UHGV virus genome: UHGV-1364187
Direction: 5' to 3' (one strand)
DNA length: 64,000 bases
DNA from: a virus
Below the pieces are notes generated by a model that worked only from the letters and a program-made list of their open reading frames with translations, was not told the origin of the DNA and made no database searches. This document shows, piece by piece, positions 3,871-57,578 of the stretch. Position numbers and translations under genes: made by a program. How positions within the stretch are numbered: position 1 is the first letter of the stretch; each line of letters opens with the position of its first letter.

Positions 3871-3963
3871 CTGTGTAGATACAAAGGCAAATTATTTATG
3901 ATACTAATATTAAATTAACACATAATTATAGACATTAAATTTATTAGAAAGAGGTGTAATGAA

Positions 3964-8769: not shown

Positions 8770-8810
8770 GCCTGAAACATATAAATAATGACGAAAGGAG
8801 AGTGATAGAA

Positions 8811-9771: not shown

Positions 9772-9866
9772 AAATTATATACGTCTACAATTTTTACACC
9801 GTAGACGTATATAATTTAACATCTATATAAATTTTATATTACTTTAGAAAAGGAGGTTAGAATGTA

Positions 9867-15792: not shown

Positions 15793-15924
15793 TATACTAA
15801 AATACATCTATAGCGTCAAATGTATTATTTTAACACTATAATAAATATAATCAAACTATACTATTACAATTAGTACAGTTTACAATCACATTATATTAAA
15901 TTAAAAAGAAAGGATGTGTATTTT

Positions 15925-24552: not shown

Positions 24553-24629
24553 TAAATATACAAGTATCTATATAGGTACTTGTATATTTAAAACATCTAA
24601 TTAAATATCATAAAAAGGAGGAGACTTAT

Positions 24630-25760
24630 ATGGAACTAAATATCAAAAATTTCATAAGAGATGTACTTAAAAAGTACGACACCAGAGTAGATACAAAGTT
24701 ATCAAATTTAAATATATCTACTGATTATACAAGTTTATCAAATAAACCTACATTAAATGGTGTAGAAATATCTGGTAATAAATCATCATCAGATTACAAT
24801 TTAATTGGAGAAGATCATGACTCTTCAACAACAGCTCATAGTGATATTAGATCATTAATATCCACTAATAAAACTACTATAGATTCACACACATCAAATA
24901 CAGATCTACATGTTTCTAGTTCAGATAGAAATTTGCTTACAGCATTAAACCATAATAAAGGTACATTTGAATCAGAGACATTATTACGTGCAGCATATCC
25001 AACAGCATCTAGTGGAGATTATTGCGTTTGTTATAATGGAACTAACTATACTGTTTGGACATACAGTACAGATTGGGTTGATACTGGACAATTAGGAAAT
25101 GTAACATCAGTAAATAATCTTACAGGAGATATTACATTAGATTCTAATAATGTAAATTACGAAACTGGTATTACATTAAAAACAAAGATAGATCAAAATC
25201 AATCCGATATACAGACATCTATAGGAGATTTATCAGCATTACAAACTGTAGATAAAACTTCTATTGTTAATGCAATTAACGAGGTTTTTCTAGAAGTCGA
25301 TAATGGGAAGACTTTATTGGCTAGTGCCATTACCGACAAAGGAGTTACTACTAGCAAAGATGATGAATTTAATACTATGCTAGGAAATCTATATAGTATT
25401 AAATCTGGAAATAATAATAAAGCAATTGTCACTTCTATATTAAGTGAGAATTCTAATAATTATACGCAAATCATGACAAAAGAAAAATACACAGTATATG
25501 CAGAAACTATATATAATGTAGACTCTGTATATACTGATAATGGAAATGGTAGTATAACTATAGACAACGATTATACAACAGTATCATGTTTAGGGTATAT
25601 TACTGTTCTAGATGAAACAAATAAACCAGTTTTTATGAAACCAAATGACAGTAATATGTATTACATGTTATCGTATATGATAGTTATAGATAGTTCTGGA
25701 AACCAAACTACTGGATTATCTGGATTAAAAGTATTGCCTCGACCATGTGTAATATTATAG
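24630..25760 (+). CDS. tail fibre-like protein
   Basis: RBS AAAAAGGAGG. S/T/N-rich beta-type sequence. Confidence 0.45.
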   Translation: MELNIKNFIRDVLKKYDTRVDTKLSNLNISTDYTSLSNKPTLNGVEISGNKSSSDYNLIGEDHDSSTTAHSDIRSLISTNKTTIDSHTSNTDLHVSSSDRNLLTALNHNKGTFESETLLRAAYPTASSGDYCVCYNGTNYTVWTYSTDWVDTGQLGNVTSVNNLTGDITLDSNNVNYETGITLKTKIDQNQSDIQTSIGDLSALQTVDKTSIVNAINEVFLEVDNGKTLLASAITDKGVTTSKDDEFNTMLGNLYSIKSGNNNKAIVTSILSENSNNYTQIMTKEKYTVYAETIYNVDSVYTDNGNGSITIDNDYTTVSCLGYITVLDETNKPVFMKPNDSNMYYMLSYMIVIDSSGNQTTGLSGLKVLPRPCVIL

Positions 25761-25771
25761 GAGAAATAACA

Positions 25772-27028
25772 ATGAACTTAGTTACTAAAATTAATGACAT
25801 AACAGAAATATCTAAAATTAATAAAAATACATTTATAAAAGAATTACAAAATAAAGGATTTGATATTGATGATAATGCAACATACAAAGATATATCTAAT
25901 TATATAAACAAAATAGATATTACTAATAATAATATTCATCTAAATGGTATTTCAACATCATTTATAAATTCTGAATGGGTAGAGCTTAGTTCTCTACCAT
26001 CAGATTTTATAAAACATAAATCTGTAGTATACAATGGAGATATTCATATATTAGGGGGAGATGGAACTAAAAATTCCACTCTTCATTATAAATATGATGG
26101 AACTTCATGGACAAAAGTATCAACATTACCATTTGTATTTATAGATGGTCAGGCTGTAGTGTATAGAGATTGTATACATATAATAGGATCTTCATACAAT
26201 TCGACAGTAAGACCATATCATTATAGATATAACGGAACTTCATGGACAAAATTAACAAATTCACCAGCATCATACCCATATGGAGGATATGCAGTTAATC
26301 ATAACGATAAAATTCATTCTATTGGTGGAACTTATACTTATAACGATAGACATTATACATGGAACGGATCAAAATGGACATCTATAAAATCTGTACCTTT
26401 TGATACAAGATATGGTTGTGGTGTAAGTTATAATAATCACATATATGCAATTGGGAGTAGTATATCATCTAGTAAAAACAGATGGTCTAGATGGTCAGAT
26501 GAAACTTCTAGTTGGGATGATATAAAAACATTATCGGCTTCTTATACAAATGCATATGCTGTTGTATATAATAATAGTCTACATTTACTTGGTGGTTCAG
26601 AAACGAAAAGACATTATTCATTTAATGGATCTAAATGGACTTTAGAAACTACACATGAAAATTTATTATATTATGGTGCATGTGTTATTTGGAATGAACA
26701 ATTTCATATATTAGGTGGAACTGGTACAGAAAATAAACACTATGTTTTATCTAATATAACAGTAAATAATACAATAATAGTAAAAAATACTTCAACTATT
26801 TATCATGAATCTACAGAACCTACAATAACAAAGATAAATGATGAATATGATTGTATTACGTATGTTAAAGATGAATATTTAACCATTAAAGATAATGATA
26901 AAATAACATTTATTCATTCTAATAAAGATAATAAGTGTTATTTACCAAAAGGAAGTAAGATAAACGGTAATATACAAGATATATATGGTGTAATTGATTA
27001 CCCAAATTATCCATGTATTATCGAGTAA
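25772..27028 (+). CDS. Kelch-repeat (beta-propeller) protein, paralog 1
   Basis: Repeated ~45-aa units (IHILGG...YKYDGTSWTK). N- and C-termini are paralogous to 27073-29118. Confidence 0.55.
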   Translation: MNLVTKINDITEISKINKNTFIKELQNKGFDIDDNATYKDISNYINKIDITNNNIHLNGISTSFINSEWVELSSLPSDFIKHKSVVYNGDIHILGGDGTKNSTLHYKYDGTSWTKVSTLPFVFIDGQAVVYRDCIHIIGSSYNSTVRPYHYRYNGTSWTKLTNSPASYPYGGYAVNHNDKIHSIGGTYTYNDRHYTWNGSKWTSIKSVPFDTRYGCGVSYNNHIYAIGSSISSSKNRWSRWSDETSSWDDIKTLSASYTNAYAVVYNNSLHLLGGSETKRHYSFNGSKWTLETTHENLLYYGACVIWNEQFHILGGTGTENKHYVLSNITVNNTIIVKNTSTIYHESTEPTITKINDEYDCITYVKDEYLTIKDNDKITFIHSNKDNKCYLPKGSKINGNIQDIYGVIDYPNYPCIIE

Positions 27029-27072
27029 CATAAGTTAATATTTTTTATAAACAGGAATTGGGGGTGATAAAT

Positions 27073-29118
27073 ATGTCTTTAGTTAATCAAATAAACGACA
27101 TTACAGATAGTATAAAACTATATAAGGATGCATTTATAAAAGAATTAAAAAATAAGAATATTACAATTGATTATGATTCTGGTTTTCAAGAGATATCAGA
27201 AAAAATACAAGATATTTCATCATCAGTAACTGAATTTTCAACATGTGCATATAATGAAGATTACATAAATGGGGTATGGAAAAATGTATCAACATTACCA
27301 GATAGTATATATAAGATGAAAGCTGAAGTTATTGATAATAAAATAGAATGTTTGAATGCTAATTATAGACTAGAATATGATGGATCTTCATGGACTAAAT
27401 TTACTGATATTCCATACTCATGTGGAATTGATATGTGTGTTATAAATTATAATAATGAACTTCATGTATTAGGAGGCGGTACTGGATCTAATAGAACAAA
27501 ACACTATAAATACGATGGTGATTTGTGGACCACAGTGTCAACTATACCATATCAATTTTATAGAGGAATATGTATTGTGTATAATAATGAGATACATCTG
27601 ATAGGTGGATATTCTTCTAATAATTATCATTATAAATATGATGGAAATTCTTGGACAAAAGTGGCAGTGTTACCATTCGCTTCAGTGTACGGTACAGCTG
27701 TAGTGTATAATAATGAAATACATGTTATTTCTGCAAATTCAACAAATGCTTCAAAAGGGAATCATTATAAATATGATGGGACATCATGGAGTTTAGTTAC
27801 TACATTTGAACCTGTAAAAACAAATAATGATAGATCTTGTTATTCAATAGCAGTTGTTTATAATAATAAGATACATGTATTCAATGCGTACGATTCATAT
27901 TATAATACATATGATGGTACATCATGGACTTCTATTGGAAATTACCCATATGGCACATATAGTGCAATTGTTATATATAATAATAAAATACATTCATTGG
28001 GAGGCAGTAATACTAATTTAACACATGTAAAATTGGAATTTTCTAATAATACAATACCTTCAAATATATCTAGTACAATTGTAGATAATATATCAAGTGA
28101 TGATGATATATTTGATAGTATATATTATAAAGGTAAAATATATTCATTTGCTAATGAATATAGATATGAATATGATGGTACATCATGGACTAAAATATCA
28201 GATATACCTAACTTATATGCAAATATTATGAGGTGTGCGGTAGCAATATATGATAATAAAATTCATATATTGGGTGGCGGTTATGCTGAAGATAGAGCTG
28301 GTCATTATTCATATGATGGTACATCATGGACTAGTGTATCATCTTTACCAATAAGATCAGTATACGCTAATGCTATATCGTATAATGGAGAACTTCATCT
28401 TATTGGTGGGGATGGATACACTACAATACATTATAAGTGGGACGGAACTTCATGGACACAACTTACAAATTTACCGTTCGATTCCAAATCAGGAACATGT
28501 GTTATATATAATAATGAAATTCATATAGTAACAAGTGTTGATAGAGGATATGATGTGCACCATTATAAATATGATGGAACGACATGGACTCTTATTCACA
28601 CATTTACTTCAGACGAAATTAATAGACCAGAATACACAAAAATGATATTATATGATAATAAATTGCACTTATTTAGTGAGTTTAATAATAGATATTATAT
28701 ATTTGACGGGACATCGTGGACATATGTATCTAATTATACATACGATGGATATGCTTCCAGTGGTATAGTTATATATAATGATAAAATTAATACTATAGGT
28801 GGATATTCTAAAATGTATAGATATATTATAGATTATAATGAACTTTCTATAAATTGTACAATGATAATTCCTAGTACATCAACAATATACCACGAAACTA
28901 CATCTCCTACTATAACTAAAATAAATGATGATTATAATCTTATATCTTTTATAAAAGGTGAATATTTAACTATTGCTAATAACAACAAATTAATATATGT
29001 GTGTAAGAATGATACTACTAATAAGTGTTATTTACCAAAAGGAACAAAAATTAATGGAACAGAAATAACAACATACGGAGTAGTGGATTATCCTACAACA
29101 GCATGTATTATAGAATAA
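27073..29118 (+). CDS. Kelch-repeat (beta-propeller) protein, paralog 2, with roughly twice as many blades as paralog 1
   Basis: More than 10 Kelch-like blades (YNNEIHLIGG...YKYDGNSWT). C-terminus (...KCYLPKG.KING...YGVVDYP..CIIE) is shared with 25772. Confidence 0.55.
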   Translation: MSLVNQINDITDSIKLYKDAFIKELKNKNITIDYDSGFQEISEKIQDISSSVTEFSTCAYNEDYINGVWKNVSTLPDSIYKMKAEVIDNKIECLNANYRLEYDGSSWTKFTDIPYSCGIDMCVINYNNELHVLGGGTGSNRTKHYKYDGDLWTTVSTIPYQFYRGICIVYNNEIHLIGGYSSNNYHYKYDGNSWTKVAVLPFASVYGTAVVYNNEIHVISANSTNASKGNHYKYDGTSWSLVTTFEPVKTNNDRSCYSIAVVYNNKIHVFNAYDSYYNTYDGTSWTSIGNYPYGTYSAIVIYNNKIHSLGGSNTNLTHVKLEFSNNTIPSNISSTIVDNISSDDDIFDSIYYKGKIYSFANEYRYEYDGTSWTKISDIPNLYANIMRCAVAIYDNKIHILGGGYAEDRAGHYSYDGTSWTSVSSLPIRSVYANAISYNGELHLIGGDGYTTIHYKWDGTSWTQLTNLPFDSKSGTCVIYNNEIHIVTSVDRGYDVHHYKYDGTTWTLIHTFTSDEINRPEYTKMILYDNKLHLFSEFNNRYYIFDGTSWTYVSNYTYDGYASSGIVIYNDKINTIGGYSKMYRYIIDYNELSINCTMIIPSTSTIYHETTSPTITKINDDYNLISFIKGEYLTIANNNKLIYVCKNDTTNKCYLPKGTKINGTEITTYGVVDYPTTACIIE

Positions 29119-35608: not shown

Positions 35609-36457
35609 TTACTCTTCCCCCTTTTTAAATATATTTGGAACTGTTATAAAATTATCAGATATAGTTCCAGCCTCATTTAATGTAGTATGAATAATATGTT
35701 CTTTATTATAAATTACATCTGGAATATTCATACCACGTTTTAATACTTCTATGTCAATATCATTACCGTCTGAATGAATAGCATATACATTTGACATAAA
35801 TTTTTTAACTTTTTCTTCATCACCATTAAATAATGATGTTACTCTATAAATAAATTTATCAATATTCATATGTGGATTATCAGGATAACTTTGTAAAGTT
35901 AAATCTTGATAGAATTGGTCAAATTCTGCTATATGTTTGGCTAATCCAACAAATTTGACAGATTTATCAAATTCAATATCAGATGAATCACCAGAATAGT
36001 ATATATAACCATTATAGTGATTTATAGCTAATGCATAACAGTTTTTATATTCCCCATGTTCTACTGGAACAAATAAAATTTCTGTGTCCATAATATCATT
36101 GTAATAATCTTTTACTTCATACATTAACGGATCAACTTTGCACATTCCAAGATATGCTACAATTGAACCTTTATCTGGAAAATATACGGTTGGCTTAATA
36201 CCTTTTATATAATTACAATATTCAATTAAAGAACCTAAACTGCCTACATGATCTGAATGAAGATGAGTAATAATAATATTAACTGTTTTAATATTATCAT
36301 CTATAAGTTTAAGTCTAAGAATCTGTTTAAAAATATCACCACCACAGTCTATAAGTGTAAATACATTATATTCTGGTAACACGAAAAATGCTGAATTGTT
36401 GTGTTGATCTTCATTAAAACAACTTCCTCTACCAATAAAATTTAATAATTGTTCCAT
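35609..36457 (-). CDS. metallo-beta-lactamase-fold hydrolase
   Basis: ITHLHSDHVGSLGSL (HxHxDH). C-terminus ITVPNIFKKGEE carries the shared motif. Confidence 0.65.
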   Translation of the reverse strand: MEQLLNFIGRGSCFNEDQHNNSAFFVLPEYNVFTLIDCGGDIFKQILRLKLIDDNIKTVNIIITHLHSDHVGSLGSLIEYCNYIKGIKPTVYFPDKGSIVAYLGMCKVDPLMYEVKDYYNDIMDTEILFVPVEHGEYKNCYALAINHYNGYIYYSGDSSDIEFDKSVKFVGLAKHIAEFDQFYQDLTLQSYPDNPHMNIDKFIYRVTSLFNGDEEKVKKFMSNVYAIHSDGNDIDIEVLKRGMNIPDVIYNKEHIIHTTLNEAGTISDNFITVPNIFKKGEE

Positions 36458-36474
36458 AATTACATCTCTCCTTT

Positions 36475-37200
36475 TTAATAATTTGAATTATATATTGGAT
36501 TTAAATTTTGAGTAAATTGCAATCTAGCATAATAAGTATATACAGCTCCACTAAATGTCTGATATGCAAGATTCATAAACTCAATATTTTCATTAATAGA
36601 TAAATCTACTATATGATTATTTGCTAAAGGTTTTGTCTTAGATAATTGTAAGATAAAACATCCAGCAATTTCATATCCTTCTTTTATAAGCATATCCATA
36701 TATGCAGCTAATTGACACCAATACTTATAACCAATATGATTAGATGTCTTAAAATCCCCTACATATAATCTTCCATTAATCTTTAGTATTACATCTATAG
36801 TCCCACCATAATATTCACATACAGTAGGTCTTTCTATAGCAAATACTTCTACGTTATAATCTCTATTAAGTTGATTCCACCATGTTTTAAATCCAGAAAT
36901 ACAATTGAAAATTTGATTAGATATATTTCTTGGATATATAGAATAATCGACTTCATAATTACTATCAATCATGATCTTATCACAAAGATCATGAACTATT
37001 GTTCCAATATTAGCATAAAAGTCTAGTTCTTCTTCATAATTTTTATGTCTAAAACCAAGACTATTTGCCCAATTAGTAATATAATCATCATGCATCAATG
37101 ATAATATTTCTGTTACTCTTGGTACATTTCTTCCATTACATTGATATCTATCACAAGATATATATGGAGAGAAATTCATATAAGATAAAATGTTATTCAT
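36475..37200 (-). CDS. PD-(D/E)xK family nuclease (RecB/lambda-exo-like)
   Basis: IERP...GTIDVILKINGRLYVGDFKTS...QLAAYMDM corresponds to the E, D, DxK and QxxxY motifs. Confidence 0.45.
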   Translation of the reverse strand: MNNILSYMNFSPYISCDRYQCNGRNVPRVTEILSLMHDDYITNWANSLGFRHKNYEEELDFYANIGTIVHDLCDKIMIDSNYEVDYSIYPRNISNQIFNCISGFKTWWNQLNRDYNVEVFAIERPTVCEYYGGTIDVILKINGRLYVGDFKTSNHIGYKYWCQLAAYMDMLIKEGYEIAGCFILQLSKTKPLANNHIVDLSINENIEFMNLAYQTFSGAVYTYYARLQFTQNLNPIYNSNY

Positions 37201-37283
37201 TTAACGTTCTCCTTTCATATAAGATTATTATAGTGTTCTAAATTAAGTAAAAAATAAAAAAGATAGAGGGTTTCCTCTATCTT

Positions 37284-37694
37284 TTATTCTACTTCATACA
37301 CATCATATTGTGCATGTGAGATATTATAATCAAACCCTATTACATATTTTCTATCAGGATCATCTATAAGTTTTTGTATCTCTTTTGGTACTATATTAAT
37401 TATATTACCAACTCCAAAAGATATACATGTACTATCATAATTATCTTTATTTGTACTTGGTACTATCACCTTATGTTTTTTCACTTTACAAGTACAGTTA
37501 TCTAATGTATATTGATTAATACTATATATATTATAATAAATTTTACTATCGTCTAATGTTTCTAATATAGGACCATTCTCTTTGAGTAACTTATCTAAAT
37601 AATGAATATACAATGCTCTATCTTGATTCATATATACTGTTCTTTCTAAACTATCTTTTAATTTATTTACATCTAATTCGAGATTTATTAACAT
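37284..37694 (-). CDS. hypothetical protein
   Basis: 136-aa ORF. Bidirectional terminator hairpin at 37249-37288. Confidence 0.45.
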   Translation of the reverse strand: MLINLELDVNKLKDSLERTVYMNQDRALYIHYLDKLLKENGPILETLDDSKIYYNIYSINQYTLDNCTCKVKKHKVIVPSTNKDNYDSTCISFGVGNIINIVPKEIQKLIDDPDRKYVIGFDYNISHAQYDVYEVE

Positions 37695-37960
37695 GATAAT
37701 TCACTCCTTTTATTTTTCATATTTTGTTTACGAGCAATAGTAGCTCTTATTAAACATTCTCTTTTATTTTTCTTAATTACTTTTACAACTTTTTGATACC
37801 TTTTCTTACTTAGTTTACGTAATCTTACAGTTAAGTCCAGATGTACTGTAGATTTACTAACGCCGAATACTTCTGCTGTTTCTCTTAGAGTAGATTTGTT
37901 TTTTACATAATAATCCGCTTCATCTAAAATCCTTTGTTTAATACGTGCATTATTTCTCAT
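37688..37960 (-). CDS. SpoIIID-like HTH transcription regulator
   Basis: IKQRIL...YYVKNKSTLRETAEVFGVSKSTVHLDLTVRL aligns with B. subtilis SpoIIID IKERTIKIGKYIVETKKTVRVIAKEFGVSKSTVHKDLTERL. RBS AAAGGAGG. Conserved promoter upstream. Confidence 0.7.
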   Translation of the reverse strand: MRNNARIKQRILDEADYYVKNKSTLRETAEVFGVSKSTVHLDLTVRLRKLSKKRYQKVVKVIKKNKRECLIRATIARKQNMKNKRSELSC

Positions 37961-37984
37961 AACTAAATCCTCCTTTAATAATCT

Positions 37985-38016
37985 ATATTCATATATATAA
38001 TATATAATTGAAAATA
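37985..38016 (-). promoter_or_regulatory. conserved early-promoter element
   Basis: Minus-strand TTTTCAATTATATATTATATATATGAATATAG, then AAAGGAGG and the ATG of the SpoIIID-like gene. Confidence 0.5.
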
Positions 38017-38064
38017 TTATTACTTGAACATTTACATAATAACTTGTTAAGGAGGAATTGTAAT

Positions 38065-39021: not shown

Positions 39022-42000
39022 ATGAAAGTATTTGATTTAATGAGTAAATTACATAAGAGCACAGATAGTGCTCTTATGGAAACTCAATTGGGACATATTC
39101 CATTAGTATATGAATTACAGAAAGAGAAATTTCCAAGCAATATTAAATATAGACATGAATTAAGAGATTCTAATTCTTATAGAGTTCTTAAACAAGACTT
39201 TGTTAGAACAGGATTAGATGATTCTAAATTTATGAATGCTAATGATTTGTATAAAAATGGTAAAGTAAGAAAGATTATTTGTGTAGATCAAAATGGTTAT
39301 AAAGTGAATGATTCTACTATAAATATAATAATAGATGAAAGAACGTTCTTTATAAATTCAACAGATCCATATGCTGAATTAAAATATTGTATAGTATTTA
39401 TGGAAGATATAGTATATGATAAATCGTCTGTTATATTCGGTATAACAAATGGTATGTTTGTTGGTGGTATTGGTACTAATGAATGTATATCGTCTAAGAA
39501 TCTATTTATGGAAGCAGTGTTTACAACAGATGGGTTAATAGAACCTAAACAACTTAATGCTAGATATAAAGTATTTAAAGAAAATATATATGTAGTAAAG
39601 AATGGTAAGTTTTTATCTCACGATGTAACTCATGTATATGGAAATGTATTCAAAATTAATGATTTTACCGATACGGATAACTGGTTTGTTTATATTATAT
39701 ACTACAAAGATGAAGAATGTATAGATAATGTAAATAAATTAGAAAGTAAAATTAGAATTTTAGATGGAATGTTTCAAGAACTCCCAAACTATATAGAAAA
39801 AATGAGTGATGATTTTGACTATAGAATAGATCCAAATAAATCATATAAAGAAAATCTTCATGATATATTGAATTATATTTCAAATTATAATCATGAAGGT
39901 TTATTACAATTATATCTAGAGAATAAGACTTCTATTATAGAAGAATATACTGGAAAGTATATGATATCTTTAACTAAACCTGGAGATATTTGTGCTTATC
40001 TCCCAAGAAGAAGAAATGGAAAACAATATAATTATATAATTATGTATGTAAATGGATTATTATATAAATATCATGATGAGATAGAATATAATATTACCAA
40101 TATTAAAATACCATTAAAAGAAATCAATCATGAAGACGAGATTTTAATACAATTCTTTTTAGATTGTGGTAATAATACTTATAATACGACTTTTACTAAA
40201 GGTGCAACAAATACTATAAATTTTAGATATATTACTACCAATCCAGCTAATATAGAATTATATTCTCCAGAGTTTGAAGGAAAACATCTTTATGATTTGC
40301 CAGTAGATGATACAAGACCATTAAAAGTCGATTATGAGTATACTATGAATGGAAAAGATATGGAAGTTGAATTAGAAAATCCATATCTATATGGTAAAGA
40401 ATTAGCAATAGTGAATAAAAGACAGTTTAGACATCAAAAGATGCAAATACCAATTAAATATAGAAATAAATTAAGATATAAAGCATATTCTATAAGTACT
40501 ATATTATCTACATATAGAAACAATATTCCAAATAATATAGATGAATTTAATGCTTTATTTAGTAATATGACAGCTACATTAGAAAGTATTATAGATATAC
40601 CTAATGAATTAAATTTTATAGGAGTAGACGAATTCCCACCAGAATATTCTACAGATACATTTGCTATAGAATTAGAAGGATGTTTCTGGGTAGAAAAAGA
40701 AGATATATATAATATAGTGCTATTATCTAATGCTGGATCTAGATTATATATAGATGATCAACTTATGACTGTAGATATAAATGGTAGATTTAATGTAGGA
40801 GATGTAGATAATGGTCCTAATAGATGTAATATATTATTAGATAGAGGATATCATAATATAAAGATAGATTATGTCAATAATGTAGAACATCCATTATTAC
40901 AATTAGCATGGAAAGGATCTACAGAACAATACTATTCTATGATGAATGGAGATTTCTTATATCAAGAATTACCAGACTATTATATTCTTAAATTAAATGA
41001 AACAGATTTTAAATACTGTTTAAATTTTGGTCATTTTATCATGTTCAATGATGGAAGAAGATTATATGATAATGAGGCTTATGTAAAATTACATGGTATA
41101 GACCAAGTATATGATCAATCATATATAATAATATCAAAACCAATTCCAGAAGGAGATTTTATTGATATTTTCTATGTTCCAGATATAATTCTAGAAGTGT
41201 ATAGAGAAGATAGATTACCGGAAGATGGATATATTACTGTAGACAAAGATAATATGCTTAATACAAATCATCCAGAATTGTGTAATGTATATGTCAATGG
41301 TAAACTTATTAATCCTAAGCACATGATTAATCTAAATACTAATACTATGAAAATCAAATCTAATATTCACACTAAATCTTCAGTATGCGTATTAAAGACT
41401 AATATGTATGATGGATATACAGACGCAATATTTGAATATTCAAATGATGTATGGACAGAAGTAACAAATGGAATGTCACTAGAAGTAAAAAATAAATATC
41501 TTGGTGATTATGAAGATATTATCGATGAAGAACCAGATTATTTCAAACCACCATGTGTAGATTTAATATGGGCAATTATTAAGAAATTCTGGATAGATAG
41601 ATTTGGAGTTATCGATGCTGAAATGTTATTCCAATACAATGATGATCCAAGAGTATTAAGAAAGACAAAATTCTTACATGATTATATAGAATCTACAGAT
41701 TATGAAGATAACTCTAATATAGAATATAAATTATATGATCAAGATTATCATAAGTATCATAAGTTTATATGTAAATCACCAACTGCACTAAAATTTGGAA
41801 AACATGAAAATTTAGATCCTAATAAGAAATATTCTATCTCTATGAGTGTATCTTTATATTTAAATTTATCTCAACCAACAGATAGATTTTATTGTGAATT
41901 ATATGGAAGTGGTGGTACTAAACAAATTCCATTATGCTATAACCAAGAAACTTCTTTAGATATATCTCAAGTACCAAAAGTATATATGCTTAGATTATAT

Positions 42001-42207
42001 CTAGATAATATACCAATTACATCAGACTTTAATAATCTTAGAGTAGTATGTAATTTTAAAAATAGTGAAGAATTTGTTAAATTTGAAGATGGTATATTCT
42101 TAGAAGAACATGAATTTTCTAATAGAAATATAGAATCTATCATCATAGATCCATCTGTTATTACAGGAGTTAAACTTCCATATGGAAGTGAATTTGATAA
42201 AGAATAA
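39022..42207 (+). CDS. large PA14-domain protein (carbohydrate-binding/structural)
   Basis: FAIELEGCFWVEKEDIYNIVLLSNAGSRLYIDDQLM...GYHNIKIDYVNNVEHPLLQLAWKG fits the PA14 consensus. RBS GGAGGAGG. Confidence 0.5.
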   Translation: MKVFDLMSKLHKSTDSALMETQLGHIPLVYELQKEKFPSNIKYRHELRDSNSYRVLKQDFVRTGLDDSKFMNANDLYKNGKVRKIICVDQNGYKVNDSTINIIIDERTFFINSTDPYAELKYCIVFMEDIVYDKSSVIFGITNGMFVGGIGTNECISSKNLFMEAVFTTDGLIEPKQLNARYKVFKENIYVVKNGKFLSHDVTHVYGNVFKINDFTDTDNWFVYIIYYKDEECIDNVNKLESKIRILDGMFQELPNYIEKMSDDFDYRIDPNKSYKENLHDILNYISNYNHEGLLQLYLENKTSIIEEYTGKYMISLTKPGDICAYLPRRRNGKQYNYIIMYVNGLLYKYHDEIEYNITNIKIPLKEINHEDEILIQFFLDCGNNTYNTTFTKGATNTINFRYITTNPANIELYSPEFEGKHLYDLPVDDTRPLKVDYEYTMNGKDMEVELENPYLYGKELAIVNKRQFRHQKMQIPIKYRNKLRYKAYSISTILSTYRNNIPNNIDEFNALFSNMTATLESIIDIPNELNFIGVDEFPPEYSTDTFAIELEGCFWVEKEDIYNIVLLSNAGSRLYIDDQLMTVDINGRFNVGDVDNGPNRCNILLDRGYHNIKIDYVNNVEHPLLQLAWKGSTEQYYSMMNGDFLYQELPDYYILKLNETDFKYCLNFGHFIMFNDGRRLYDNEAYVKLHGIDQVYDQSYIIISKPIPEGDFIDIFYVPDIILEVYREDRLPEDGYITVDKDNMLNTNHPELCNVYVNGKLINPKHMINLNTNTMKIKSNIHTKSSVCVLKTNMYDGYTDAIFEYSNDVWTEVTNGMSLEVKNKYLGDYEDIIDEEPDYFKPPCVDLIWAIIKKFWIDRFGVIDAEMLFQYNDDPRVLRKTKFLHDYIESTDYEDNSNIEYKLYDQDYHKYHKFICKSPTALKFGKHENLDPNKKYSISMSVSLYLNLSQPTDRFYCELYGSGGTKQIPLCYNQETSLDISQVPKVYMLRLYLDNIPITSDFNNLRVVCNFKNSEEFVKFEDGIFLEEHEFSNRNIESIIIDPSVITGVKLPYGSEFDKE

Positions 42208-46235: not shown

Positions 46236-47408
46236 TTACAATCTTGTCTTAAGAACTTCTAAAATCTTAAATTGTAAAGTTGATGGATTAATTAATTCAT
46301 CACCTCTCATATTTACAACATTATCAATATTTACTCCATAATTATTACACATACCAGATGCAGTTTCTTTATTAATCTTACCAATTTCAATATGGTAATC
46401 AAATCTACCATTTCTAAGTATAGCATCATCTAATTTATCTTTATAATTAGTAGTACCAATAAAGATACAATTATTTGGAGAGTTAATACCATCTAATACA
46501 TTAAGAAGATCACCAATTGTATCATATTTCATACTCTTCATATAATTATCAAATGGATTATATTGTTTATCTTTCTTATTATCATCTTTATCAGATCTTG
46601 TTCCTGTAGAACAATCTATATCTTCAAACAATATTACAGAATTAGTCATTCTTGAAATATTATTTATAAGATTATCATTAATATAATTAACTTTTATAAT
46701 TACTAATCTATATCCCATATAACTAGCAATAGCCTTAGCAAATGATGATTTACCAGTTCCAGGTTCTCCATATAATAGAATACCTATATTATGTTTTATT
46801 TGATGCTTTTTATAGATAAAGTCATCTTTCTTAAACTTCTCAAGTATATCTATAATCTGTTCTTTTTTGTCTGAGAATATATTATTCATTGAATATTTAT
46901 CATATTCATATTGATAAAAACTACCATTTTCTGAATATTGTCTAACATCTAATTTATTTACACTTTCTCCTCCTTTGTTTATATAATTAGTAATATATTC
47001 AAATTCTTGCTTCGCATTGACTCCACATATAGAAATATTTATTATATGATTACGAGAATCAGAAGCATCAAATGGAATATTACTAATTGTATATAAACAC
47101 TTATTATGCCATCCAGTGAAATGTAGATTAGAAGGTATATTATTGTCACTTGATGTTGATTTACTTTCATCTAAATATCTATTTGGTTTATAAAATTTAT
47201 TTAAATTTGGAAATAATTCATGCAAGACTTTACATGTATTGTTATAAGGTTCTAACCAAAACATATCATCAACTTGTATCTTATAACATATCTTTTGTTC
47301 AATTGATTTCTTCACTAATGGTGTAACTGTTCTTACAACACTATTTCCTAAGTTTGTTAATCCTGCTACTGCTGCTAATTTCATTAATTGTTTAACTTCT
47401 TTATTCAT
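46236..47408 (-). CDS. BCS1-like classic-clade AAA+ ATPase
   Basis: GILLYGEPGTGKSS, ILFEDIDC, NCIFIGTTNYKDKLDDAILRNGRFDYHIEIG. RBS AAGGAG. Confidence 0.7.
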   Translation of the reverse strand: MNKEVKQLMKLAAVAGLTNLGNSVVRTVTPLVKKSIEQKICYKIQVDDMFWLEPYNNTCKVLHELFPNLNKFYKPNRYLDESKSTSSDNNIPSNLHFTGWHNKCLYTISNIPFDASDSRNHIINISICGVNAKQEFEYITNYINKGGESVNKLDVRQYSENGSFYQYEYDKYSMNNIFSDKKEQIIDILEKFKKDDFIYKKHQIKHNIGILLYGEPGTGKSSFAKAIASYMGYRLVIIKVNYINDNLINNISRMTNSVILFEDIDCSTGTRSDKDDNKKDKQYNPFDNYMKSMKYDTIGDLLNVLDGINSPNNCIFIGTTNYKDKLDDAILRNGRFDYHIEIGKINKETASGMCNNYGVNIDNVVNMRGDELINPSTLQFKILEVLKTRL

Positions 47409-47622: not shown

Positions 47623-48498
47623 TTAATTTCTTTCACATAATAATTTTAATTGTAATTCACTTTGATTATATGGTGCTTCCATATCTTTAAGAATCTTATC
47701 TGGATCGGCACCAAAATATCTACACATATTTTCTGCAACTTCTCTATTATGTATTGGTTTAACTTCAAAGATCATATCAAATCTACCACTACGTAATAAA
47801 GCTTCATCTAATTTTTCTATATGATTCGTAGTAGCAATAAACATAACTTCTTCTTGAGAGTTAATACCATCCATTACATTTAACAATCCAGCGATATTAT
47901 TTTTATCTTCTACAACTTCCCCATTATCATTAACATTATTAGTTTTCTTATCTAAATATCTATCTATATCTTCAAATACATATATTGTTTCTTCGTATTT
48001 TGGGAGAGTTTTTAATTTAAATGGATCATTTACAGTAATAATACGTCTATTTGTATAATATGCTATAGCTTTGATAAGACTAGTTTTTCCTGTACCTGGT
48101 TCGCCATATAATAAAACTCCAGTCTTATGTATAATATGTTTTTCTTTATAAAAATCTGTATTTGAATTAAATTTGTCTATAAATTTAATAAGTGGTGATA
48201 TATCATCAAAGAATAATTCATCTAAAGATTTACAATATACACGATTAATTAAACCGTTTATAGTATTTGTATTACTATCAAATTCTTGAACATATACAGA
48301 ATTTGGTCTTGATTTAATAGGTGGATGATATTCATCAATTTCTTTAAAAATTTCCAATTTATTATGTCCTATAATATAAAACTTACACGTATTAAAATTT
48401 TTCATTACCTTATTGTCAGTACCTATAGTTTTGAATTCACTTTTTATATCAAATATAATATATGATGATTTATATATACATATATGAATACCGCTCAC
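47623..48498 (-). CDS. BCS1-like classic-clade AAA+ ATPase, paralog 2
   Basis: GVLLYGEPGTGKTS, VFEDIDRY, VMFIATTNHIEKLDEALLRSGRFDMIFEV. The apparent start is a GTG. A consensus sigma-A promoter lies upstream. Confidence 0.65.
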   Translation of the reverse strand: MSGIHICIYKSSYIIFDIKSEFKTIGTDNKVMKNFNTCKFYIIGHNKLEIFKEIDEYHPPIKSRPNSVYVQEFDSNTNTINGLINRVYCKSLDELFFDDISPLIKFIDKFNSNTDFYKEKHIIHKTGVLLYGEPGTGKTSLIKAIAYYTNRRIITVNDPFKLKTLPKYEETIYVFEDIDRYLDKKTNNVNDNGEVVEDKNNIAGLLNVMDGINSQEEVMFIATTNHIEKLDEALLRSGRFDMIFEVKPIHNREVAENMCRYFGADPDKILKDMEAPYNQSELQLKLLCERN

Positions 48499-48780: not shown

Positions 48781-48810
48781 TCATATTTATAATATATAAT
48801 TGAAAAATAT
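48781..48810 (-). promoter_or_regulatory. conserved early-promoter element
   Basis: Minus-strand ATATTTTTCAATTATATATTATAAATATGA upstream of the small ORF at 48741 and the AAA operon. Confidence 0.45.
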
Positions 48811-53996: not shown

Positions 53997-54087
53997 TTTT
54001 GATTCCTCCATTTATTTTAAATTTAATTAGAATATTTTTATTCTAATCACTTATATAATATATATAATCAAAATTTTAAAATATTAC

Positions 54088-57510: not shown

Positions 57511-57578
57511 TATGTAAGTTCACGTCATTTTAACATGCTAATAATTAAGTAAATATATTAAAAAAGGAGTGATTAAGA

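Follow-up and report, generated by a model that had tools for sequence, protein, structure and literature searches.

Why should a bacteriophage carry a gene for a protein that resembles SpoIIID, a regulator of the mother cell during sporulation, and on which genome, its own or that of its host, would such a protein act? The question is raised by the virus genome UHGV-1364187, of which we analysed a stretch of 64,000 nucleotides (hereafter the window), and within it by a small gene for a 90-amino acid protein (Table 1). Judged from its sequence and from a structure model, this product is a genuine member of the SpoIIID family, with the SpoIIID fold and an almost unaltered recognition helix.

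A phage-encoded member of the SpoIIID family

The Pfam family PF12116 (SpoIIID) matched the 90-amino acid product with 67.9 bits (E 8.8e-19; the gathering cut-off is 27 bits) over profile positions 4-81 of 82, and PHROG 11726 ('sporulation stage III protein D', category 'moron/host takeover') matched residues 4-83 with E 9.5e-21 over profile positions 8-87 of 89. In a phmmer search against PDB sequences the protein retrieved Bacillus subtilis SpoIIID (2L0K; E 2.6e-8, query residues 7-79). The initial annotation, which had assigned the gene to SpoIIID from an alignment alone, had named the comparison with the family profile beforehand as the test of this assignment, and the matches to PF12116, PHROG 11726 and 2L0K decide it clearly in favour of the family.

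The alignment itself, which runs along the SpoIIID helix-turn-helix, also proved correct: in the recognition region the phage sequence FGVSKSTVHLDLTVRL and SpoIIID FGVSKSTVHKDLTERL are equal at 14 of 16 positions. The helix-turn-helix comprises residues 25-50 with the recognition helix SKSTVHLDLTVRL, and the family signature of this helix, G-V-S-K-S-T-V-H-x-D, is present; K36, T38 and D42 hardly vary between the aligned sequences. Of two motifs that had been proposed to match further upstream, IK.R does so, the phage IKQR pairing with IKER of SpoIIID, but the other, written as KT.R, is actually K-x-T-x-R, with K22, T24 and R26 of the phage protein paired with the K, T and R of SpoIIID.

An AlphaFold2 model based on 65 homologues has a mean predicted local distance difference test score of 93.3 and consists of four helices (residues 2-21, 25-32, 36-50 and 52-89). 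Its best match among solved structures is again 2L0K, with a probability of 1.00, template modelling (TM) scores of 0.67/0.65 and 38% identity over 76 columns, while the second-best structure was matched with an E value of only 0.9. A tblastn search of the window with both the phage protein and B. subtilis SpoIIID recovered this gene only, and no second copy. From its sequence, the phage protein would bind DNA in the sequence-specific manner of SpoIIID. In work by Chen and colleagues from 2014, SpoIIID is said to bind DNA as a monomer, and because of the likeness between the two proteins the same is expected for the phage protein.

Divergence from cellular SpoIIID

Within this family, sequence comparison places the phage protein as a divergent member and not as a SpoIIID orthologue or equivalog. 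The NCBIfam equivalog model TIGR02844 scored 66.6 bits, which is below its cut-off of 111.5. Identity to 79 homologues from bacterial genomes (Clostridia and other Bacillota) had a median of 38.6% and a maximum of 46.9% over the full alignment, whereas the median identity of B. subtilis SpoIIID to the same 79 copies is 54.7%, and even in the best tblastn segment identity to bacterial genomic copies was never higher than 51%. In a HMMER search of the full database the phage protein was the sole member of its own 50%-identity cluster; 43 of the 1,404 matches reached E <1e-10, and single-domain relatives were 37-58% identical. With B. subtilis SpoIIID (2L0K, PF12116, TIGR02844) it has in common a single domain of about 90 amino acids, the fold (TM 0.67), an almost identical recognition helix (SKSTVH-DLT-RL) and a basic C-terminal helical extension. 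However, the two proteins are only 33% identical over the full alignment (38% over the 76 structurally aligned columns), and the phage protein is more basic, with an isoelectric point of 10.6 and 26 lysine and arginine residues among 90, compared to 9.1 and 19 among 93 in B. subtilis SpoIIID. Furthermore, spoIIID of B. subtilis is a chromosomal gene with a sigma-E promoter, whereas the phage gene lies on a phage contig behind an early element of the type found in phage AR9, that is, a promoter of the virion-polymerase type (see below).

Most of the divergence lies in the C-terminal extension, where the family motif ERHIRGG-AT-K-KY reads ECLIRATIARKQNM in the phage protein, with RAT in place of RGG. 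RGG is kept in all 79 bacterial copies, in 37 of 52 viral copies from IMG/VR and in 99 of the 132 nearest cluster representatives; about 15% of these 132 lack both glycines and tend to have a hydrophobic residue instead of lysine at position 41, and the phage protein likewise has a hydrophobic residue there. The C-terminal extension of the phage protein has kept its basic character, and in the AlphaFold2 model residues 52-89 form one continuous helix of 38 residues. According to the same work by Chen and colleagues (2014), the C-terminal extension of SpoIIID reportedly occupies the minor groove as two helices with a kink between them. If the model is right, the change of the RGG kink to RAT and the resulting continuous helix may have altered affinity or site preference relative to cellular SpoIIID.

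The GC content of the gene (27.5%) equals that of the window (27.4%), and this together with the low identity to bacterial copies indicates that the gene is an old, diverged resident of phage genomes. A recent capture from a host was considered and ruled out, as the GC content is fully ameliorated and bacterial copies are at most 51% identical. Six contigs that carry the gene are identical in sequence over the whole transcription unit described below, which makes an analysis of selection impossible.

A predicted early two-gene transcription unit

The gene had also been proposed to be driven by a conserved early-promoter element, and here the evidence is strong. The 16-mer TTCAATTATATATTAT ends 37 nt upstream of the spoIIID-like start codon and is present in the window in five exact copies and one copy with a single mismatch, compared to 0.24 expected; none of 100 shuffles reached six. 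All copies are intergenic and co-oriented with the downstream gene, and TATATATTAT is always separated from a downstream G by exactly six bases. There is a weaker seventh copy at 54062, and four further copies are located in two 10-kb flanks outside the window. The early promoter of AR9, which is read by the injected virion RNA polymerase and has been defined experimentally, is AAATATATATTAT-(6N)-G+1 (PMC5312081); the two elements thus agree in the 10-nt core TATATATTAT, in the 6-nt spacing and in the start base, and differ in the upstream part, which is AAA in AR9 and TTCAAT in this phage. Because of this agreement, and because AR9-like beta subunits are encoded on the same contig, it is a well-founded inference by analogy that the element is an early promoter of the virion-RNA-polymerase type. 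On the same analogy, G 37990 is the predicted transcription start, which gives a leader of 30 nt. The genes behind elements of this type are mostly small and without function by annotation; among them are two AAA ATPases and one Bro-N protein.

The early promoter is followed by the leader, the spoIIID-like gene, an overlapping open reading frame (ORF) of 136 codons (orf136) and a hairpin terminator. In the leader, the 3' end of the Shine-Dalgarno sequence AAAGGAGG is located 8 nt before the start codon; in AR9, 5' untranslated regions range from 26 to 491 nt (PMC5312081). The start codon of orf136 begins 7 nt before the end of the spoIIID-like stop codon, and because of this overlap orf136 is probably co-transcribed and translationally coupled with the spoIIID-like gene. 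Its product has no match in Pfam or PHROG and only a self-match among 5.8 billion proteins, and it was called as a gene on five of six independent contigs; it may be a functional partner of the SpoIIID-like regulator. The stop codon of orf136 overlaps the first bases of the 12-bp hairpin, which is followed by a U-tract and whose RNA fold (-19.5 kcal/mol, z -5.4) was not equalled in stability by any of 200 shuffles. The exonuclease gene further downstream (36475-37200) has its own AACA-(6N)-TA motif. Taken together, the early promoter, the terminator and the separate late-type motif before the next gene delimit a discrete two-gene unit.

AACA-(6N)-TA is the consensus of AR9 late promoters, and in the window it takes the extended form ~(T/A)AACA(T/C)nTAnnTAA and precedes many start codons without an early element, at a distance of 35-50 nt. 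In 7.3 kb of non-coding DNA we counted 21 such predicted sites, compared to 11.8 +/- 3.3 in shuffles, which is a moderate enrichment.

The carrier phage

The identical protein is encoded on 16-18 contigs from several samples, the longest of which has 256,505 bp (ENA ERZ27229639 k119_250412); several of the short ones are from gut metagenomes. The window corresponds to positions ~102.6-166.6 kb of the longest contig, and the spoIIID-like gene is located there between replication genes and virion genes: the window encodes a Dda-like helicase, both subunits of topoisomerase II, a DnaB-like helicase, a PD-(D/E)XK exonuclease and a metallo-beta-lactamase (MBL)-fold hydrolase, as well as an endolysin with Amidase_2 and SH3_3 domains, tail-fibre-like proteins and a virion structural protein. 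No beta' catalytic motif and no RNA polymerase domains were found inside the window. Upstream of it, however, are two genes for split RNA polymerase beta-like proteins. The product of the more distant one (~7.8 kb upstream) has 592 amino acids and contains PF00562 (RNA_pol_Rpb2_6); its N-terminal 228 residues show 31-34% identity to the beta subunits of AR9, PBS1 and Staphylococcus jumbo phages (E 1e-23 to 1e-26), and its N-terminus also matches a Listeria jumbo phage (30.5%, E 2e-17) and phiKZ-like phages. The second ORF matches PHROG 3233 ('RNA polymerase beta subunit') with E 1.2e-37. Because of these AR9-like split beta-subunit genes we assign the carrier, on the sequence of its contig, to the AR9/phiKZ-type jumbo phages; it is a previously undescribed gut phage with its own multisubunit RNA polymerases.

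In addition to the core, spacing and start base of early promoters, the phage shares with AR9 the AACA-(6N)-TA late-like motif and the homologous split beta subunits. The relationship is nevertheless distant, with only ~31% protein identity and neither DNA-level nor tblastn similarity for several large proteins, and AR9 is without a SpoIIID homologue. A megablast search with 4 kb around the gene against 50,697 GenBank phage records gave no match, nor did tblastn searches of phage records with three neighbouring large proteins.

Possible functions of the SpoIIID-like protein

The reading that we prefer, with a confidence that lies about midway between doubt and conviction, is that this DNA-binding member of the SpoIIID family is expressed early and directed at the host chromosome, not at the phage genome, and that it thereby interferes with the mother-cell programme of sporulation. 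The virion RNA polymerase would transcribe the unit right after injection, starting at G 37990, and the protein, as a monomer, would recognise DNA that resembles the SpoIIID box (core ...ACA...), inserting its recognition helix into the major groove while the basic C-terminal helix lies alongside. We would expect it to target mother-cell (sigma-E/sigma-K) promoters of a low-GC, spore-forming clostridial host in the gut, and its untimely binding there, in the manner of SpoIIID, would keep sporulation genes repressed or upset their timing. The infected cell might thereby stay a productive factory, or spore entry might be tuned for the benefit of the phage.

This reading is favoured by two negative results: SpoIIID boxes are not enriched in the window, and the protein does not seem to be core to phage transcription. 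Matches to three published consensuses of the SpoIIID box are present in the window, but none of them is enriched, although the counts cover 64 of the 256 kb and such short, degenerate consensuses have little power in DNA with 27% GC. GGACAAG, the idealised site of B. subtilis, was observed five times compared to 2.75 expected from shuffles, and WWRRACARNY, an older B. subtilis consensus, 78 times compared to 71. For KRTAACARK, the SpoIIID box of Clostridioides difficile (PMC5025042), there were 17 matches and 20.4 expected. A TAACAAG beside the gene (38037-38048, minus strand) was not counted, as it overlaps the Shine-Dalgarno region of the divergent gene. With regard to transcription, the genes of the phage are presumably transcribed by its own polymerases, by analogy with AR9. 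No SpoIIID homologue was detected by tblastn (E <1e-5) in AR9, PBS1 and the Staphylococcus jumbo relatives; since these phages share the polymerase, the SpoIIID-like protein is not core to the AR9-type transcription system.

A host-directed role also fits the literature, because phages of spore-forming hosts are enriched in sporulation homologues that include spoIIID (K06283), and because phage homologues of sigF and sigG lower the spore yield of B. subtilis by up to 99% (Schwartz 2023, PMC10294663). Cellular SpoIIID is known both as a repressor of sigma-E promoters, through steric overlap, and as an activator of others (PMC517825). The bacterial homologues that we recovered are almost all from Bacillota, mostly Clostridia, the GC content of the phage is 27%, and its endolysin (Amidase_2 and SH3_3) is of the Gram-positive type. 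These three observations make a spore-forming host, which the initial annotation had regarded as implied by the phage copy, a reasonable but unproven assumption; that the phage manipulates host sporulation is likewise a hypothesis.

Several points weigh against this interpretation. Apart from the limited power of the box counts, it is only the gut origin, the 27% GC and the endolysin that point to a Gram-positive Bacillota host. In the contig region from 94 to 176 kb no other sporulation or sigma-factor homologue was seen, and the protein lacks the RGG that is present in 79 of 79 bacterial copies, so that its specificity may differ. Moreover, cellular SpoIIID activates transcription only together with sigma-E or sigma-K polymerase, both of which are absent from vegetative cells; unless infection overlaps sporulation, only effects of repression or occupancy are therefore plausible. 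Finally, a review from 2025 describes phage SpoIIID homologues as 'not validated'.

Less probable, although the most serious of the alternatives, is that the protein is the phage's own temporal regulator, which acts on phage promoters and takes no part in the sporulation of the host. As a steric repressor or as a co-factor of the non-canonical phage RNA polymerases, it could silence early promoters, or could delay or license AACA-type late promoters. The spoIIID-like gene shares a 104-bp divergent region with a gene for a virion protein that bears AACA-(6N)-TA at 38027-38038, and the late-like motif ~(T/A)AACA(T/C)nTA and the C. difficile box KRTAACARK have the core TAACA in common. The steric promoter overlap described for SpoIIID (PMC517825) would work against any polymerase, and a divergent sequence with low identity and without RGG would be expected after co-option. 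However, the common core is no longer than 5 nt, in DNA that is AT-rich, ACA is followed by Y in the late motif and by R in the box, and none of the full SpoIIID-box consensuses is enriched in the window. The non-virion polymerase of AR9 reads the late promoter itself, without such a factor (PMC5312081), and the lack of a detectable SpoIIID homologue in AR9, PBS1 and the Staphylococcus jumbo phages with related polymerase argues in the same direction.

Rather improbable is a role as a low-specificity architectural or nucleoid-binding protein that coats or bends host or phage DNA early in infection, for example in the shutdown of the host nucleoid, with the SpoIIID fold serving only as a small monomeric DNA-binding module. 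The high isoelectric point and the large share of basic residues compared to B. subtilis SpoIIID would be in line with this, as would the loss of RGG and the longer, more basic C-terminal helix; in addition, B. subtilis SpoIIID occupies numerous sites on the chromosome where it has no effect on regulation, and it has been proposed to have an architectural function (PMC517825). Yet the recognition helix is conserved nearly residue for residue, which argues for retained sequence-specific contacts in the major groove.

We regard as quite unlikely that the SpoIIID-like protein has been co-opted as a DNA-binding accessory factor of the multisubunit phage polymerases. Made early, the protein would recognise the TAACA core common to SpoIIID boxes and to the AACA-(6N)-TA late-type promoters of the phage, and would so time the switch from early to late transcription. 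If this were true, it would be the first sequence-specific transcription factor described for a phiKZ/AR9-type polymerase system, and one derived from a bacterial developmental regulator. That the gene is a non-functional remnant or a chance ORF is hardly credible given its intact full-length frame (profile positions 4-81 of 82), strong Shine-Dalgarno sequence, dedicated promoter and terminator, the confident structure model and the presence of the same protein on 16-18 contigs from several samples.

Phage relatives and significance

Phage homologues of spoIIID as such are already established, as documented by ORF42 of the Clostridium perfringens phage phi3626, by PHROG 11726 and by Schwartz 2023 (PMC10294663). 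ORF42, which is annotated as 'similar to sporulation specific transcriptional regulator SpoIIID' in a genome that also encodes a sporulation-like sigma factor, is ~44% identical to our protein over a tblastn segment (residues 6-78) and 38% identical over the whole protein. A tblastn search also revealed a homologue in the C. perfringens phage vB_CpeS-CP51, and at least 57 loci in IMG/VR contain one, including contigs of 241, 167 and 130 kb. All these homologues belong to the same family, are of similar size and occur in phages of low-GC clostridia or gut Bacillota, and in phi3626 and CP51 RGG is degenerate too, as RGV or RGA. However, the carrier described here is a 256-kb jumbo phage of the AR9 type that encodes RNA polymerases of its own, whereas phi3626 and CP51 are temperate siphophages of 33-39 kb. 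The phi3626 gene is located among replication genes, downstream of the sporulation-like sigma factor gene, whereas ours is the first gene of a separate early unit that also contains an ORFan. None of the 57 IMG/VR loci shares other genes with the window beyond endolysin-type matches; without a common neighbourhood and without close relatives, synteny could not be used. What is new is thus the carrier (an AR9-type gut jumbo phage), the expression class (a dedicated early unit with an ORFan) and the variant without RGG. A comparative review of 224 jumbo phages makes no mention of SpoIIID.

The sigF and sigG homologues of Bacillus phages are comparable in that they, too, are phage copies of sporulation-specific transcription regulators and are thought to rewire host development (PMC10294663). 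They belong to another protein family, being specificity subunits of the polymerase and not small helix-turn-helix repressors or activators, and in contrast to phage SpoIIID homologues they have been studied by experiment.

The majority of the best-scoring relatives of the phage protein (P0011-P0018, metagenomic) have 169-599 amino acids and contain two to six tandem SpoIIID-like domains; in the two triple-repeat proteins inspected, P0011 and P0014, the RGG region at the C-terminus is missing from the internal repeats. We know of no description of such a tandem architecture. The closest small homologue (P0019, 53-58% identity) was uninformative, as it is located on 0.7-kb contigs without a promoter element.

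Transmission in the gut is dominated by spore-forming Bacillota, and by becoming dormant these can escape phages; the sporulation regulators carried by phages are regarded as counter-measures. The protein described here offers a clean test case, being small, expected to be monomeric and predicted to be expressed very early, with a near-unchanged recognition helix and an altered C-terminal extension. As the phage is presumably independent of the host polymerase, an effect on the sigma-E/sigma-K genes of the host, if there is one, could only be manipulation of the host. The context is perhaps even more valuable, namely what appears to be an AR9-like jumbo phage of a low-GC anaerobe from the gut, in which motifs of early and late promoters can be recognised.

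Other features of the phage

Table 1. Positions of the two-gene unit, promoter-like motifs and polymerase genes (window coordinates unless the flanks L065 or L066 are named)
Feature	Position	Strand	Basis or remark
spoIIID-like gene, 90 amino acids	37688..37960	minus	ATG-to-stop ORF; family and structure matches
Early-type promoter, TTCAATTATATATTAT at 38012..37997, 6-nt spacer ATATAT, G 37990	37990..38012	minus	repeated motif, AR9 likeness
5' untranslated region (30 nt counting G 37990)	37961..37989	minus	Shine-Dalgarno AAAGGAGG at 37976..37969
orf136, 136-amino acid ORFan	37284..37694	minus	ORF list
Intrinsic-terminator-like hairpin, 12-bp stem, 4-nt loop, then UUAUUUUUUA	37248..37285	minus	terminator scan
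(T)TTCAATTATATATTAT-(6N)-G element family	1484, 2886	plus	motif scan of window
(T)TTCAATTATATATTAT-(6N)-G element family	38012, 44076, 48804, 54062, 57500	minus	motif scan of window
(T)TTCAATTATATATTAT-(6N)-G copies outside window	L065 4836, 3448, 764; L066 17135	minus	flank scan
AACA-(6N)-TA, examples	3917-3928, 8776-8787, 9818-9829, 15832-15843, 24592-24603, 38027-38038, 57532-57543	plus	motif scan
AACA-(6N)-TA, examples	37237-37226, 53303-53292	minus	motif scan
Split RNA polymerase beta-like genes	L065 1-685, 5278-6009 (~7.8 and ~2.5 kb upstream of window position 1)	minus	PF00562, phrog_3295, phrog_3233

No tRNA genes and no Rfam families were found in the window. About 7 kb upstream of its first position, a group I intron (RF00028, 80.4 bits, full-length model; L065 1265-1601, minus strand) is flanked by two ORFs, one matching the N-terminal and the other the C-terminal part of a UvsX-like recombinase, and the recombinase gene is therefore split by the intron. 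AR9 likewise contains at least one intron-interrupted gene, the late gene g189 (PMC5312081).

The MBL-fold hydrolase (Lactamase_B; 35609-36457, minus strand) has a sub-threshold N-terminal match to Apyc1 (PF23023, 27.5 bits; cut-off 50) and is possibly a cyclic-nucleotide-degrading anti-defence enzyme. Two adjacent AAA+ ATPase genes (46236-47408 and 47623-48498, minus strand) are located behind the early promoter at 48804, and one of them shows a weak nSTAND3 match. Directly after the gene for the virion structural protein, a 1061-amino acid protein with a carbohydrate-binding PA14 domain is encoded (39022-42207, plus strand), which is probably a virion-associated host-recognition protein. The tail-fibre region (25745-29118, plus strand) encodes two neighbouring large proteins with Kelch/NANM-like beta-propeller repeats.

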